Positions 2,977 to 26,826 of a stretch of 35,920 nucleotides of DNA are shown piece after piece. Where the stretch lies: assembly GCA_964551495.1 (NCBI GenBank), contig CAZKCA010000006.1, forward strand, positions 1 through 35,920. Direction: 5' to 3'. The position numbers and the translations under genes are program-made. The notes beneath the pieces are model-generated. The model saw nothing but the letters and a program-made list of their open reading frames with translations, searched no databases and had not been told where the DNA came from. The first letter of the stretch is position 1. Each line of letters starts with the position of its first letter. The DNA is from an uncultured Candidatus Saccharibacteria bacterium. GTDB lineage: Bacteria; Patescibacteriota; Minisyncoccia; Phycocordibacterales; DATDWN01.

Positions 2977-3050
2977 TGCGCGTTGAGGAACTCGAATCCC
3001 CGGCCTTCTCAACGTCAATGAGACGCTCTAACCAACTGAGCTAAACGCGC
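2977..3050 (-). tRNA. tRNA-Val (anticodon GAC)
   Basis: Hand-folded cloverleaf on the minus strand: GCGCGTT / AACGCGC acceptor, GCTC/GAGC D-stem, TCTCA-TTGACGT-TGAGA anticodon arm, GGGGA-TTCGAGT-TCCTC T-arm. No CCA is encoded. The tsaD ATG starts 2 nt after the discriminator. Confidence 0.9.
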
Positions 3051-3111
3051 ATTAACACTCTAAAAGTACCAGATTTCGGGTTATTTTGCTAGTGGGTATT
3101 TTCTAATATAC

Positions 3112-4003: not shown

Positions 4004-4125
4004 TGACCCTACGGGGAATCGAACCTTACAGGATCAGTACCCCGATTGAGATATTTTATTTCGCAGGCTCATAAAATATCTCAATCGGGCTTCGATTCCC
4101 CAGACTTTTTTACTTCATAAAAATG
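4004..4125 (-). repeat. tRNA-tail element Glu-1 (long AT-hairpin type), ending in an exact 22-nt copy of the tRNA-Glu tail
   Basis: tgaccctacggggaatcgaacc occurs at 4004-4025 and inside tRNA-Glu at 4126-4147. The interior carries GGGGAATCGAAG (inverted T-loop), a 19-bp hairpin CCCGATTGAGATATTTTAT / ATAAAATATCTCAATCGGG, then GTACTGATCCTGTAA. Confidence 0.8.
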
Positions 4126-4197
4126 TGACCCTACGGGGAATCGAACCCCGATTACCGCCTTGAAAAGGCGATGTCCTAACCGTTAGACGATAGGGCC
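4126..4197 (-). tRNA. tRNA-Glu (anticodon TTC)
   Basis: GGCCCTA/TAGGGTC acceptor, TCGCC-TTTTCAA-GGCGG anticodon arm, CGGGG-TTCGATT-CCCCG T-arm. No CCA encoded. Confidence 0.9.
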
Positions 4198-6130: not shown

Positions 6131-6202
6131 AGTGCGATAATTATAACAGAATAAGAAATATTTCCAAAAACAAGTGACAATTAAAAAAATAACAGTGAGA
6201 AG

Positions 6203-6285
6203 CGCCAGCCGGAGACACTGTCTGAGCGAAGCGAGTTTGGCGGGAGGTCAGCTTCGAGTGCTTTATTTCACAAAAACCGAGGACG
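6203..6285. repeat. GC-rich 83-nt intergenic repeat, copy A (inverted partner at 18052-18134)
   Basis: About 88% identical by hand count to the reverse complement of 18052-18134; the first 48 nt differ at 2 positions. Lies in the trxB-ftsZ spacer. Confidence 0.85.
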
Positions 6286-6311
6286 ATGAGAAATCAATTG
6301 TTTTTGAAATT

Positions 6312-11258: not shown

Positions 11259-11894
11259 TTAGTTTATTTTTCCAGGCCAAAAACTTATTTTTTGAATAGG
11301 AAGAAGTCTAATAATAGGTTTGCCTATTATCTCTTCTTCTTTCAATGTCCCCCAAGATCTTGAGTCATAACTTTTTGGACGATTGTCTCCCATGACAAAA
11401 TATTCGTCTTTGCCAAGTATGACCGTAAAATCTGCCTGAGATTTGTTGACTATAAAAGTTTCGTCGAGTATCAAACCGTCAGGGTTTTCATCATTTATTA
11501 TTGTTATTTGAGAACCTTTCATTTTGACCGTTTCTTCAGGTAGACCTATTATTCTTTTTATTAGATTTCTTTGGCTATCTGTTTTAAAAGTTGGGTCTTT
11601 TAGATTGAAAACAATAACGTCGTTTCTTTTTAGATTTTTATTTTGGACGCTAATTTTTTCAACTATAAGATAGTCGCCAGATTCAAAAGTTGGACTCATT
11701 GATTCTCCGGAAACTACATAAGGTTCAGCGATAAAGTATCTAAAAGGTAGTACTATACCAAAGGCTATAATCGCAAATATAACAACTTCTTTTAAGATAG
11801 ATTTTAAGGTAGAAGATTTTTTTTCTTGGGGTACTATAGGAGCATTATTTTCCTCATTCATGGAGCTATTATACAGATAATGTTTTGTTGACAC
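11259..11894 (-). CDS. lepB: Signal peptidase I
   Basis: SGESMSPTF (catalytic Ser), KRIIGLPEE (Lys) and GDNRPKSYDSR boxes, with an N-terminal TM segment. Confidence 0.9.
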   Translation of the reverse strand: MSTKHYLYNSSMNEENNAPIVPQEKKSSTLKSILKEVVIFAIIAFGIVLPFRYFIAEPYVVSGESMSPTFESGDYLIVEKISVQNKNLKRNDVIVFNLKDPTFKTDSQRNLIKRIIGLPEETVKMKGSQITIINDENPDGLILDETFIVNKSQADFTVILGKDEYFVMGDNRPKSYDSRSWGTLKEEEIIGKPIIRLLPIQKISFWPGKIN

Positions 11895-11945
11895 AATAGG
11901 AGAAAGTGTAATGTAAAAAATAGTAAATAAAATCTTGTTGAGACT

Positions 11946-12030
11946 CTACATATTTGGAGACTTCGCAAGCGCGACGGCGCGAGACCGAGCAAAATTTCAG
12001 CAGAAATTTATGCGTGCTCCAAATATGTAG
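11946..12030 (+). repeat. Orphan member of the tRNA-tail element family, bounded by perfect 14-bp terminal inverted repeats
   Basis: ctacatatttggag (11946-11959) pairs with ctccaaatatgtag (12017-12030). The interior GCGC-GACG-GCGC hairpin and AAAATTTC-AGCAG-AAATTT hairpin match unit Lys-B (25706-25790). No tRNA is adjacent. Confidence 0.75.
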
Positions 12031-12084
12031 TGTTGAAAAAGAGATTTTATTCCAATTTTTCTATTTTTCATTTATAATTTGCCT

Positions 12085-12672
12085 ATGTCATACATATTTG
12101 TTGGGCTCGGAAATCCAGGAGAAGAATACGAAAATACACGTCATAATGCTGGTAGGATATTGCTTTCTTATTTTGCCAAGGAAAATGGTTTTGATTTTAC
12201 TTATGACAAAAAGATAAACTCCCAAGTTGCAAAAGGAAAAGTTGGTAAAAGTTCGGTTACACTTATTTTGCCAGATACTTTTATGAATAATTCGGGGAAA
12301 GCTTTGAAGGATGTGATCAAAAATCAGAAATCAGCAGAAAAATTATTGGTTATTTATGATGAGTTAGATCTTCCTTTTGGTAAAAATAAAATCTCTCACA
12401 ACAAATCTTCAGGAGGACACAGGGGATTGGAATCTATAATAAAATCTATAAAAACCAAAAATTTCGCAAGAATAAGGATTGGTATCTCTCCAGTGACTCC
12501 AACAGGCAAAATAAAAAAACCAGTAGGGGAAGAAAAAGTAATGAAATTTATTTTAGGAAAATTTAGTCCGGATGAATTAAAAGCTTTGAAAAAAATGTCC
12601 AAAGATATAAACGAAGCACTCGAAAATTTTGTAAACAATGGGTTAGAGATAGCGATGAATAAGTTTAATTAA
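12085..12672 (+). CDS. pth: Peptidyl-tRNA hydrolase
   Basis: IFVGLGNPGEEYENTRHNAG N-terminal signature. The ATG at 12085 is preferred over the TTG at 12079. Confidence 0.9.
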   Translation: MSYIFVGLGNPGEEYENTRHNAGRILLSYFAKENGFDFTYDKKINSQVAKGKVGKSSVTLILPDTFMNNSGKALKDVIKNQKSAEKLLVIYDELDLPFGKNKISHNKSSGGHRGLESIIKSIKTKNFARIRIGISPVTPTGKIKKPVGEEKVMKFILGKFSPDELKALKKMSKDINEALENFVNNGLEIAMNKFN

Positions 12673-18021: not shown

Positions 18022-18051
18022 AAAGTTTATAAATTTTCCCTAATTTCAAAA

Positions 18052-18134
18052 CGTCCTCGATTTTTATAAAACAAAGCGCTCGTCACTGACCTCTCGCCAA
18101 ACTCGCTACGCTCAGACAGTGTCTCCGGCTGGCG
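18052..18134. repeat. GC-rich 83-nt intergenic repeat, copy B (inverted partner of 6203-6285)
   Basis: Reverse complement of copy A with about 10 mismatches. Lies directly downstream of gyrA and is followed by a T-rich run. Confidence 0.85.
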
Positions 18135-18273
18135 ATCCTCGTTTTTGTTTTAGCTAAAAATCTGCGAATGTTTTTAAATTAGGGAAAATTATTGATGAAG
18201 TTTTAAAAAATCAAGGCGAATATGTGTATTTCTTTCTTTTATATTGCAAAATAAAATAGTATTATAAATACAT

Positions 18274-20090: not shown

Positions 20091-20093
20091 TTT

Positions 20094-20522
20094 ATGAAAA
20101 AAACCTTAATACATTCATTAATAATTTTTAGCTTAGCTTTCTTTGCTTTAACTTCTGTATCATTTGCTCAATCAGGTATAGAAGGTAACCAGCCTCCAGC
20201 TACACCAAGCGAAACTTCTGGCTATAGAGGGGTCATCCCTAATTGTCAGGGAAACACTTGTACTTGGAATGATATTATTAAGACAATAGATTATCTTGTT
20301 GATTTGGCTATGGGTATTGCTCTTGTATTTTCTTCGGCAGTTATAGCTTTTGCTGGATTTAAATATATGTCTTCCGGAGACAATCCAGGCAAGAGAAAAG
20401 AGGCAAATACAATGCTTCAAAAAGTTGTTATTGGAATTGTTTTGGTTATGGGTGCTTGGGTAATAGTTAATTTAATATTTACAGCTTTAGGTGCAGATCA
20501 GTCCATAAGATTTGCAATATAA
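20094..20522 (+). CDS. VirB2/TrbC-like (T4SS-type) pilin-family small membrane protein, paralog 1 of 6
   Basis: Signal peptide ending FAQ, then two hydrophobic helices joined by the FKYMSSGDNPGKRKE loop. Confidence 0.55.
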   Translation: MKKTLIHSLIIFSLAFFALTSVSFAQSGIEGNQPPATPSETSGYRGVIPNCQGNTCTWNDIIKTIDYLVDLAMGIALVFSSAVIAFAGFKYMSSGDNPGKRKEANTMLQKVVIGIVLVMGAWVIVNLIFTALGADQSIRFAI

Positions 20523-20526
20523 AAAT

Positions 20527-20946
20527 ATGAAAAAAACTTTAATACATTCATTAATAATTTTTAGCCTAGCTTTCTTTGCTTTAACTTCTGTATCATTTGC
20601 TCAATCAGGTATAGAAGGTAACCAGCCTCCAGCTACACCGAGTACTCCGAGCAATAATACGAGTTATGATATAAAAATAACAAACCCTTTGAAGGTGGGG
20701 GATAAGCTTACGGACATAATAGTGGCTGTTTTAAATAATGTTGTTATGCCTATAGCAGCAGTGGCAGCTGTGCTCTATATAATCTTGGCTGGTTTCAAAT
20801 ACGTTTCTGCCAGAGGTAACCCTGCCAAGATACAGAGTGCTCATCAAAATCTATTATGGGCGCTAGTTGGAACTGGTATTTTGTTAGGTGCAGCTGGTAT
20901 TTCTAGGGTTTTACAAAATACAGTAAATCAGTTTTTAATAAATTAA
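20527..20946 (+). CDS. VirB2/TrbC-like pilin-family protein, paralog 2
   Basis: True start at MKKTLIHS. The first 120 nt are nearly identical to paralog 1. Helix-loop-helix GFKYVSARGNPAKIQ. Confidence 0.55.
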   Translation: MKKTLIHSLIIFSLAFFALTSVSFAQSGIEGNQPPATPSTPSNNTSYDIKITNPLKVGDKLTDIIVAVLNNVVMPIAAVAAVLYIILAGFKYVSARGNPAKIQSAHQNLLWALVGTGILLGAAGISRVLQNTVNQFLIN

Positions 20947-25705: not shown

Positions 25706-25815
25706 GAATCGTGTGGTCACAAATAAATTTCTGCTGAAATTTTTCGCGACCCCGGCTTGGCCCGTCGGCCTGCGCCTTGCACATGTAAACAAAAACAGCA
25801 TAACATGCTGTTTTT
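25706..25815 (-). repeat. tRNA-tail element unit Lys-B with its hairpin module
   Basis: ACATGTGCAAGGCGCAG, a GGCC-GACG-GGCC hairpin, GGGGTCGCG, an AAATTTC-AGCAG-AAATTT hairpin, then ATTTGTGACC + ACACGATTC. Preceded by the hairpin AACAGCAT-gtta-TGCTGTT plus T-run. Confidence 0.75.
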
Positions 25816-26115: not shown

Positions 26116-26263
26116 TGTGCTCGGAGTGGGAATCTCCCTCGAAATTTTTTCGTCGCCACTCAAAAATTTCTGGGCACCGGTTTGTCGACAAGCCCTGTTG
26201 GGCTCGTAGACCGACAAACCGTTCGATTCTCACGCACAAAGCTTTGCTTTGTTTCCGTGGCTG
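26116..26263 (-). repeat. tRNA-tail element Leu-TAA (Leu type), ending in a 19-nt copy of the tRNA-Leu(TAA) tail
   Basis: tgtgctcggagtgggaatc occurs at 26116-26134 and 26262-26280. Same module order as the Leu-TAG element, with compensated stem changes. The distal tail copy lies 3 nt from the 5' end of tRNA-Lys. Confidence 0.8.
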
Positions 26264-26345
26264 TGCTCGGAGTGGGAATCGAACCCACATCCCTTTCGGG
26301 ACAACATTTTAAGTGTTGCGTGTATACCAGTTCCACCATCCGAGC
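26264..26345 (-). tRNA. tRNA-Leu (anticodon TAA), class II
   Basis: GCTCGGA/TCCGAGC acceptor, CAACA-CTTAAAA-TGTTG anticodon arm, long variable arm, GTGGG-TTCGATT-CCCAC T-arm. Confidence 0.9.
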
Positions 26346-26346
26346 A

Positions 26347-26826
26347 TTAAATATTTTTACCAATATTTTTTCCTCTATGTGTAGGTTGAAGACTATGACA
26401 GTTTGGACACAAAATCCTCAAATTTTCTAGTCTATTATCGTACCTATTACCATTTACGTGGTCTAGTTCTAAAGGAATTCTACCGTCTGTCGATATTTTA
26501 GCCCAACCACATTGTTCACATTTTGGCTCTTTTAGTTTAGCTGAAAAAAGTCTTTTTTTCAACTTAAAACTCTGATATGTACTTTTTGAAACTAGAATTT
26601 TATAAAGTGGTATTATTGGATTTTCTCCAAATTTCATACCCTTATTCCATGTCATTCCAGTAAAATGAGAAGTATCTAGGTTATTTTGTTTTACGTATTT
26701 CTTAACTTGTTCGTAGTTTCCACCAGTAGGTTTCAGTCCTAAAAGTTTTATAACATTTCTAATACTTTTAGATTTTTTAACTGCCTTTATGAGCTGATCA
26801 TCTGACCATTTTCTAATTCCACCCAT
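26347..26826 (-). CDS. Free-standing HNH endonuclease (homing-endonuclease-like) with an N-terminal HTH-like domain
   Basis: CEQCGW...LELDHVNGNRYDNRLENLRILCPNCH is the zinc-bound HNH motif. The stop codon lies 1 nt from the tRNA-Leu(TAA) 5' end. Confidence 0.8.
   Translation of the reverse strand: MGGIRKWSDDQLIKAVKKSKSIRNVIKLLGLKPTGGNYEQVKKYVKQNNLDTSHFTGMTWNKGMKFGENPIIPLYKILVSKSTYQSFKLKKRLFSAKLKEPKCEQCGWAKISTDGRIPLELDHVNGNRYDNRLENLRILCPNCHSLQPTHRGKNIGKNI

Follow-up and report, generated by a model that had tools for sequence, protein, structure and literature searches.

A structured element between lepB and pth

The stretch analysed here, hereafter the window, comprises positions 1-35,920 of contig CAZKCA010000006.1 from an uncultured Candidatus Saccharibacteria bacterium, and the subject is a structured element in the spacer between the divergent genes lepB (11259-11861, minus strand) and pth (12085-12672, plus strand). 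The most visible part of the element is a perfect 14-bp inverted repeat, in which ctacatatttggag (11946-11959) pairs without mismatch with ctccaaatatgtag (12017-12030). The repeat encloses a 57-nt interior that is GC-rich against a window of about 30% GC and that contains two hairpins, GCGC-GACG-GCGC (11969-11980) and AAATTTC-AGCA-GAAATTT (11992-12009). A first-pass annotation of this DNA had already described the 14-bp repeat exactly as we find it, and had remarked correctly that no tRNA gene stands beside it, the nearest being 7.7 kb away. It had also described the second hairpin; the hairpin is real, but its loop is AGCA on a 7-bp stem and not AGCAG.

The element does not stop at the 14-bp repeat. 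Pairing extends outward through a conserved asymmetric internal loop and resumes in a 10-bp perfect helix, P0, in which AATAAAATCT (11926-11935) pairs with AGATTTTATT (12042-12051). What had been taken for a terminal repeat is thus an internal helix, hereafter P1. Folded as RNA, the 97 nt from 11940 to 12036 reach -37.9 kcal/mol, against a mean of -21.7 kcal/mol for shuffled sequences (z -5.5; 0 of 200 shuffles as stable), and the full hairpin of 126 nt (11926-12051) reaches -48.9 kcal/mol (z -6.9). A-rich and U-rich tracts border the hairpin on both strands, and a consensus terminator scan of the window found no canonical terminator at the element. Direct repeats were sought outside both 11946/12030 and 11926/12051 and none was found, so neither the inner nor the outer repeat is flanked by a target-site duplication. 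An unannotated family of structured elements is represented between lepB and pth by one intact copy of 126 nt, and the 14-bp repeat with its interior makes up the inner portion of that copy.

A family dispersed through Patescibacteria

Further copies were collected with two exact seeds from the core. A 21-nt hairpin-1 seed matched 28 metagenome contigs, 26 of them genuine; the other two (L034, L052) were chance matches inside GC-rich coding DNA and were dropped. A 26-nt hairpin-2 seed found 50 loci in GTDB genomes, with two to four loci in several genomes. By record title, all but one of these loci come from Patescibacteria lineages (Nomura-, Zambryski-, Taylor- and Kaiserbacteria, Paceibacterota and others) or are labelled merely 'uncultured bacterium'. 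Neither seed matched any of 2.9 million viral contigs. A bare 18-mer, AAATTTCAGCAGAAATTT, was discarded as a seed after a chance match to phage coding sequence.

From 38 copies away from tRNA genes (alignment A1) we trained a covariation model, R1. In the window, R1 matches 11940-12032 on the plus strand with 103.5 bits (E 1e-23), against only 13.6 bits on the minus strand. Applied to 549 kb of related loci, it detects 97 copies at E<=1e-3, about 20 of which had escaped the seeds; several contigs carry three copies, one of them a contig of 5 kb. The majority of copies do not adjoin tRNA genes, and dozens occupy ordinary intergenic regions of many Patescibacteria. The first-pass annotation had proposed that the core can reside away from tRNA genes and had tied this idea to the existence of further such copies, of which many were found. 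Core identity reaches at least 98% between lineages whose proteins are about 70% identical.

Rfam 15 holds no counterpart of the element. At gathering threshold it matched only tRNAs in the whole window; at E<=10 on the lepB-pth copy and the tRNA-Lys cluster it gave only noise at the element; and on 12 related loci it returned only tRNA, tmRNA and RNase P RNA. A search of the full-text literature found no description of the family. The element is best described as a new structured repeat, widely conserved in Patescibacteria and absent from both Rfam 15 and the literature searched.

The closing helix covaries and the fold has a sense strand

Alignment A1 supports the fold. In it, 88.4% of cells form standard pairs; shuffling the columns lowers this figure to 68.6%, and sliding the partners lowers it to 27-55%. 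Of the 32 pairs, 27 change on both sides. All 14 pairs of P1 do so across the 38 copies, with three to five pair types at each position. The supposed 14-bp terminal inverted repeat is therefore a covarying helix and not a conserved terminus. Covariation also reaches the hairpin stems and the extension of hairpin 2 (GCA/UGC, GGA/UCC, ACA/UGU). Because the seeds dictated part of each hairpin, variation in the two hairpins is under-sampled; P1 was left unconstrained.

The fold distinguishes one strand from the other. Of 74 distinct copies, 66 fold more stably as the sense strand than as its complement (mean difference 5.3 kcal/mol, p 2e-11), and G-U pairs number 143 in the sense strand versus 46 in the complement. 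The bias holds among non-tRNA copies alone, where the sense strand is better in 33 of 38 (p 6e-6; G-U pairs 60 versus 16) and, with DNA energy parameters, in 35 of the same 38. The sense strand of the lepB-pth copy is the plus strand.

Read along that strand, the copy opens with the 5' arm of P0 (11926-11935), the perfect complement of 12042-12051 and paired with it in the minimum free energy fold. The 5' side of the internal loop follows (TGTTGAGACT, 11936-11945); it carries the family motif GTTGAG / GTCGAAG, which stands at the equivalent position in L058, L047, L003, L036, L040, L050, L100, L104 and other loci. The 5' arm of P1 (11946-11959; formerly the left terminal repeat) pairs at 14 of 14 positions with 12017-12030. 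It leads into a three-way-junction core (11960-12016) supported by the R1 match and by covariation of all four helices.

Within this core, a bulged A11960 and the pair C11961-G12016 precede helix P3a (TTC 11962-11964 with GAG 11981-11983), the bulge GCAA and hairpin 1 (11969-11980). Junction ACCGA (11984-11988) then connects to the P2 extension (GCA 11989-11991 with TGC 12011-12013), which carries hairpin 2 (11992-12009) and a bulged A12010, and junction GT (12014-12015) follows. Beyond the core lie the 3' arm of P1 (12017-12030; formerly the right terminal repeat), placed by pairing and by the family alignment, and the 3' side of the internal loop (TGTTGAAAAAG, 12031-12041; family motif YGAGWAAG / TGAAAAAG). 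Last comes the 3' arm of P0 (12042-12051), which overlaps the likely -35 box of pth and borders on a U-rich tract downstream. About 17 other copies of this long-hairpin subclass, from other organisms, have an A-rich/U-rich outer helix like P0 and the same layout of outer helix, loop with GTTGAG-like and TGAGAAAG-like strands, long inner helix and core.

The site varies among relatives

By its Pth protein the window belongs to Candidatus Paceibacterota (Parcubacteria, CPR). Divergent lepB-pth order is kept in all relatives recovered, and the site between the two genes is polymorphic. Two relatives with 100% and 94% Pth identity (L001, L002) carry the element in the same orientation; the hairpin-2 loop of L002 is ACCA in place of AGCA. 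Both of these independent Logan contigs begin inside the element, at the same hairpin-2 base (window 11994), as expected of an assembly break at a repeat. At 89% Pth identity (L003-L006), a 93-nt R1 match of 63 bits occupies the same place on the opposite strand. The entire structure is inverted there, asymmetric internal loop and arms included: the reverse complement aligns to the window from AAATAAAATC to GAGATTT, and the segment ACTTCGCAAGCGCGACGGCGCGAGAC is identical, while hairpin 2 has been swapped for UUUUU-CAAC-AAAAA. More distant relatives have no core. At 82% and 76% (L009, L010) the spacers are AT-rich and 135-160 nt long, with an apparent likeness to the arms that is not significant (z<=2.2); at 77% and 72% (L007/8, L011/12) they are 77-84 nt long. 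The lepB-pth site thus has the element present, inverted or core-free, with gene order unchanged.

Copy dynamics are also visible within communities and genomes. In four source metagenome runs, the core is 10-30 times as deep as its flanks, and contigs from these runs carry an identical core with other perfect arms, e.g. CATGTGTTTTTTAGG/CCTAAAAAACACATG, or with unrelated flanks. The depth of such contigs in run X1 is close to that of the window contig, which suggests that the same genome holds more copies. The window core differs by only 1-2 nt from a copy at another locus in a relative's metagenome (L058) and strongly from its positional counterpart (L003/L056), a pattern that suggests replacement, conversion or independent insertion and not simple vertical descent. 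Single genomes can carry near-identical copies of one subclass, GCGTATATTTGAATAG...CTATTCAAATAGGAGC, at many loci, and no target-site duplication is seen in this subclass either.

Dispersed copies ignore the direction of transcription

We surveyed gene orientation around 77 non-tRNA copies, of which 60 have a called open reading frame (ORF) of at least 100 aa on both sides. The regions are co-directional in 38 cases, convergent in 12 and divergent in 10, about the split that random intergenic placement would be expected to give in view of typical bacterial gene order. Within co-directional regions, 17 copies are sense and 21 antisense (p 0.63). Directly behind stop codons, antisense copies outnumber sense copies, 32 to 15 (p 0.02). 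The orientation of orphan-type copies (dispersed copies like that at lepB-pth) relative to neighbouring genes looks random, and no conserved promoter was found upstream of them. A strand-specific fold combined with no bias in transcription direction and no upstream promoter would be explained more easily by recognition of single-stranded DNA than by co-transcription.

The genes that adjoin copies are housekeeping genes, with no transposase among the neighbours examined. Nine pairs of copies are adjacent, seven head-to-head (16-33 nt apart) and two tail-to-tail. One head-to-head doublet, in L038 (2858-2949, minus strand; 2978-3070, plus strand), comes within 80 nt after an RNase P RNA gene (2414-2780). 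The longest direct copy of the 3' arm upstream of orphan-type copies is 6-9 nt, where shuffled-arm controls average 1.5-5.8 nt, and the arms of orphan copies match nothing nearby beyond chance.

Linked copies repeat the end of the upstream gene

R1 has only one other match in the window, unit Lys-B (25708-25791, minus strand; 30.3 bits, E 3e-5), which lies downstream of tRNA-Lys and belongs to a tRNA-linked subtype. The kinship of the two units, which the first-pass annotation had recognised, is borne out by a run of 21 identical bases (11991-12011 against 25743-25723; BLAST E 1e-6), the sole significant self-match of the lepB-pth region in the window. The plus strand of the lepB-pth copy corresponds to the tRNA-sense strand of Lys-B. 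Their GACG-loop stems covary, as had also been claimed, with compensating changes from GCGC/GCGC in the former to GGCC/GGCC in the latter. The Lys-B architecture recurs at tRNA-linked copies elsewhere, e.g. L085 and L107.

Both subtypes have hairpin 1, hairpin 2 and closure by an inverted pair; they differ in their junctions. The lepB-pth copy shows these marks of the core family, with a GC stem and a G-rich tetraloop in hairpin 1, and is in a 'long plain hairpin' subclass; Lys-B is in the linked subtype. The earlier observation that the ends again form an inverted pair, as at tRNA sites, is therefore sound, and the closing helix P1 covaries.

Linked copies have a distinctive layout. A short loop separates the end of the gene (T) from its complement (X); the core comes next, and behind it T is repeated as T'. 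This repeat of the upstream gene is 10-22 nt long and runs as far as the 3' end of the mature tRNA or the stop codon. Among tRNA-linked copies the layout is exemplified by L075, L096, L107 and L085. The same arrangement occurs right behind the stop codon of rplL in seven genomes (L063, L064, L069, L070, L071, L079, L082), where the last 12-15 nt of the gene and its stop codon are repeated 3' of the core and their complement stands 5' of it. Copies of this kind directly follow the gene and are co-oriented with it in 11 of 11 tRNA-linked and at least 4 of 4 rplL-linked cases. Orthologous sites are occupied across genera at tRNA-Glu (L007), at tRNA-Trp (L085) and after rplL (seven genomes), with compensatory changes such as CCCGTCG/CGACGGG versus CCAGTCC/GGACTGG. 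Non-tRNA copies, that at lepB-pth included, have no upstream T.

The window also contains a clean 122-nt insertion after tRNA-Glu (4125-4197), at 4004-4125 on the minus strand, relative to L007. It is flanked by a 22-nt perfect direct repeat of the tRNA 3' end, GGTTCGATTCCCCGTAGGGTCA (4126-4147 and 4004-4025), and opens with the T-loop complement GGGGAATCGAA; its cargo differs, being a long AT-rich hairpin. This insertion appears to be a recent instance of the tRNA-linked kind.

Likely promoters around the element

In core-free relatives, the sequence TTGACA-N18-TATATA lies about 40 nt upstream of the pth ATG. The same TTGACA box, identified by comparing the spacers of the window, L003 and L007, is at 11888-11893 in the window, on the plus strand, and overlaps the lepB -35 box on the other strand. 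This box probably served pth as its -35 in the ancestor; the pth ATG is now about 190 nt away. Between the element and that ATG (12085) stands TATAAT (12073-12078, plus strand), 43 nt downstream of the 14-bp repeat, where the first-pass annotation had placed a candidate pth -10 box. It is likely the present-day -10, served by a weak -35, TTCCAA (12050-12055), that overlaps the outer arm of the element; because this -35 is weak, the consensus promoter scan missed it. With the TTGACA box so far from pth and a likely newer promoter in its place, the element seems to have displaced the pth promoter, not to regulate it.

The lepB promoter, on the minus strand, has a -35 TTGTGT (11896-11891) that overlaps the perfect plus-strand TTGACA and a -10 TATAAT (11873-11868). 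The start site would fall at about the ATG (11861), and lepB may therefore be leaderless. At pth, codons 2-5 (TACATATTTG, 12091-12100) repeat 10 nt of the 5' arm of P1, so that the 3' arm could pair with the start of pth. A translational switch built on this match was rejected: the match does not exceed chance (E 3.7 across the window), and L003 lacks it.

A proposed dispersed repeat recognised in single-stranded form

With family membership, structure, strand specificity, distribution and polymorphism at lepB-pth established, we put about even confidence in the proposal that the element is a dispersed, copy-number-dynamic structured repeat, similar to REP, BIME and ERIC repeats and recognised in single-stranded form by a trans-acting factor. 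Each copy is a long hairpin whose tip is the conserved three-way junction, with the G-rich tetraloop of hairpin 1 and the AAAUUUC-AGCA-GAAAUUU of hairpin 2, on a stem (P1, and here also the internal loop and P0) that varies by locus yet stays paired. The junction may serve as the recognition module for the factor, which would read the single-stranded element and spread or maintain its copies. For dispersed copies, DNA is the more likely single-stranded form, since they are oriented without regard to transcription; for tRNA- and rplL-linked copies RNA is likely, since these are always co-oriented with the upstream gene. Copies appear to be gained, lost, inverted or swapped between close relatives. 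The lepB-pth copy would be a passenger in a divergent promoter region; it would have split the ancestral TTGACA box from pth and, when transcribed, would act as an A-tract/hairpin/U-tract barrier in both directions.

Several observations weigh against this proposal. No mobilising enzyme was identified among the genes adjoining copies, nor was a RAYT (HUH Y1) gene among the neighbouring genes examined (the 36-kb window and relatives' fragments of at most 10 kb). By R1, the window itself holds a single orphan copy. Orthologous linked sites shared across genera point to long vertical retention and function. High core identity, conserved junctions and covarying helices fit a host-essential RNA equally well. 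The first-pass annotation had suggested a search for empty sites in related strains; an exact empty site with clean junctions was found in none of the relatives compared, because the core-free ones are too diverged for junctions to be placed.

A host-functional structured RNA module, whose copies are kept by selection, is the main rival, a possible but less probable account. The module might signal processing or serve as 'punctuation', stabilise 3' ends or terminate transcripts, bind protein as a decoy or be a small ribozyme, and the lepB-pth copy would be transcribed on the plus strand ahead of pth. Such an RNA would be expected to show what the family shows: conserved junction and loop nucleotides, covarying helices and a G-U asymmetry that marks the sense strand. 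Linked copies fit it best, being co-oriented directly after their genes and filling orthologous tRNA-Glu, tRNA-Trp and rplL sites across genera with compensatory changes; copies also lie behind an RNase P RNA gene, and one run labelled RNA-seq has a few low-depth contigs with family cores, which carry no strand information and possibly derive from DNA. For the window no RNA run was found. The dispersed copies fit it poorly. They have no orientation preference (17 versus 21) and no conserved upstream promoter, and behind stop codons the antisense copies are in excess. At lepB-pth, moreover, the copy is inverted in a close relative and its core is missing in others, with gene order the same. More speculative, and in our judgement doubtful, is a further idea, in which an undescribed Patescibacteria system uses the junction as an RNA or single-stranded DNA scaffold placed by a dedicated enzyme, with the closing helix templated by the target. 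If true, this would amount to a new, target-templated way of inserting copies, or else to catalytic or guide RNAs of a new class, and the orphans would be the dispersed form of the system.

Other explanations account for less of the evidence. The first-pass annotation called the element MITE-like, after miniature inverted-repeat transposable elements: non-autonomous cut-and-paste units with transposase-bound terminal inverted repeats and target-site duplications. Small size (126 nt), absence of coding capacity, perfect inverted repeats and multiple copies suit this description, as do the near-identical arms of the GCGTATATTTGAATAG... subclass and presence that is polymorphic among relatives. 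The arms, however, differ and covary from copy to copy around a conserved interior, where a MITE would show the opposite, and the 14-bp repeat is not terminal; nor does a direct repeat flank P1, P0 or the multicopy subclass, and no transposase-like neighbour is seen. Conserved termini and target-site duplication both fail, the MITE reading is largely refuted, and we regard it as very improbable. We think just as poorly of an operator, attenuator or bidirectional terminator specific to the divergent lepB and pth promoters. The element does sit between those promoters, with its outer arm over the likely pth -35 and A- and U-rich tracts on both strands, but the same core recurs at about 100 unrelated loci. 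The 89% relative has the element inverted, and it is lacking at 72-82% identity, where lepB and pth are still divergent across spacers of 77-160 nt, and neither the terminator scan nor the chance-level pth codon match lends a local role any help.

A programmable guide-like RNA, whose variable closing helix would direct an RNA-guided enzyme as in TIGR-Tas or IS110 bridge RNA systems, also seems most unlikely. TIGR-Tas systems are present in Parcubacteria and their guides target both DNA strands (PMC12045711). The family combines a conserved scaffold with variable arms, and in tRNA- and rplL-linked copies 10-22 nt from the 3' end of the gene reappear as the 3' arm, with their complement as the 5' arm. 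Against this, orphan arms match nothing nearby beyond chance, the two arms pair with each other, which a guide pair has no need to do, and compared with the published description (PMC12045711) the window has no box C/D motifs, 36-nt array units, Nop-domain gene or recombinase gene. Least probable of all, to the point of being nearly negligible, is an inverton, a segment between repeats that flips within a population and switches a promoter. The opposite orientations of the element in the two closest lineages at the lepB-pth site invite the thought, but the whole structure is inverted, arms and asymmetric loop included, and not the interior alone. Orientation differs between lineages and not within one: four metagenome runs contain no strand-changing joints, at the level of contigs, which may hide minor variants, and no invertase gene lies nearby.

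Relation to known repeats and structured RNAs

The dispersed structured repeat that we favour resembles the REP/BIME/REPIN elements of proteobacteria, which depend on RAYT, an IS200-like HUH enzyme. Like them, it is extragenic, occurs in both orientations and in inverted doublets, lacks target-site duplications, varies in copy number among relatives, folds strand-specifically with G-T/G-U pairs and is a mosaic of hairpins. REPs, in contrast, are 20-40-nt palindromes with a GTAG head and a stem that is conserved and species-specific, whereas the Patescibacteria element is a branched structure of 90-130 nt in which a junction of about 57 nt is conserved across class-level lineages and the stems vary. 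ERIC/IRU elements of enterobacteria are of similar size (about 127 nt against 126 nt) and are likewise long imperfect intergenic palindromes found in both orientations, with variable presence; the mobilising mechanism of neither is established. Unlike here, ERIC copies have their arm sequence in common, and ERIC has neither a branched core nor a tRNA-linked form that duplicates a gene end. Correia/NEMIS elements of Neisseria and RUP of pneumococcus are also small and non-coding, have inverted repeats, lie near promoters or terminators and can create or move promoters, but they carry conserved terminal inverted repeats and a fixed target-site duplication (TA for Correia), neither of which is found here.

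Among structured RNAs, small ribozymes and riboswitch aptamers share with the element a conserved junction and loops, covarying helices, a variable P1 and a sense strand, and bacterial hammerhead and twister ribozymes likewise occur in many copies per genome and in varied contexts. The element differs from these RNAs in having no Rfam 15 match, no constant gene partner and, in its orphan form, an orientation random to transcription. Linked units recall integrative elements in their direct repeats of the tRNA 3' end, comparable to attL/attR, although they are only about 100 nt long and carry no integrase. The orphan has neither a direct repeat nor a tRNA-derived arm.

The genomes of Patescibacteria are very small and streamlined, yet they hold many copies of this element of about 100 nt, with core conservation close to tRNA level across class-level lineages. 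If the repeat is selfish, its design is unusual, with a conserved interior and free arms; if it is a host RNA module, it is tied to tRNA and ribosomal-protein transcripts. Either answer bears on the organisation of transcription, RNA processing or genome change in these uncultivated organisms. The family also breaks short-read assemblies, as in L001 and L002, and is easily mistaken for a MITE or a regulatory site; R1 provides a means to annotate it.

Other features of the window

The window's only nuclease-like ORF, of 159 aa with a C-terminal HNH nuclease domain (26347-26826, minus strand), lies between tRNA-Leu(taa) and tRNA-Cys, and no link between it and the repeats has been demonstrated. 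DNA resembling this ORF region and tRNA-Leu (26262-26726, about 71% identity) is present in a metagenome-assembled Taylorbacteria genome (L107).

A second GC-rich repeat, unrelated to the first, has two copies of about 109 nt that are 83% identical (6186-6294, minus strand; 18043-18151, plus strand). They lie just 3' of ftsZ and gyrA, in gene orientation, and give only noise in Rfam; this repeat is probably another structured 3' element. Finally, a 117-nt direct repeat (20093-20209 and 20526-20642; 97% identical, 433 nt apart) stands at the starts of two adjacent small ORFs, within a run of ORFs of about 130-145 aa whose counterpart in L007 is annotated as type IV secretion system (T4SS)-pilin-like.

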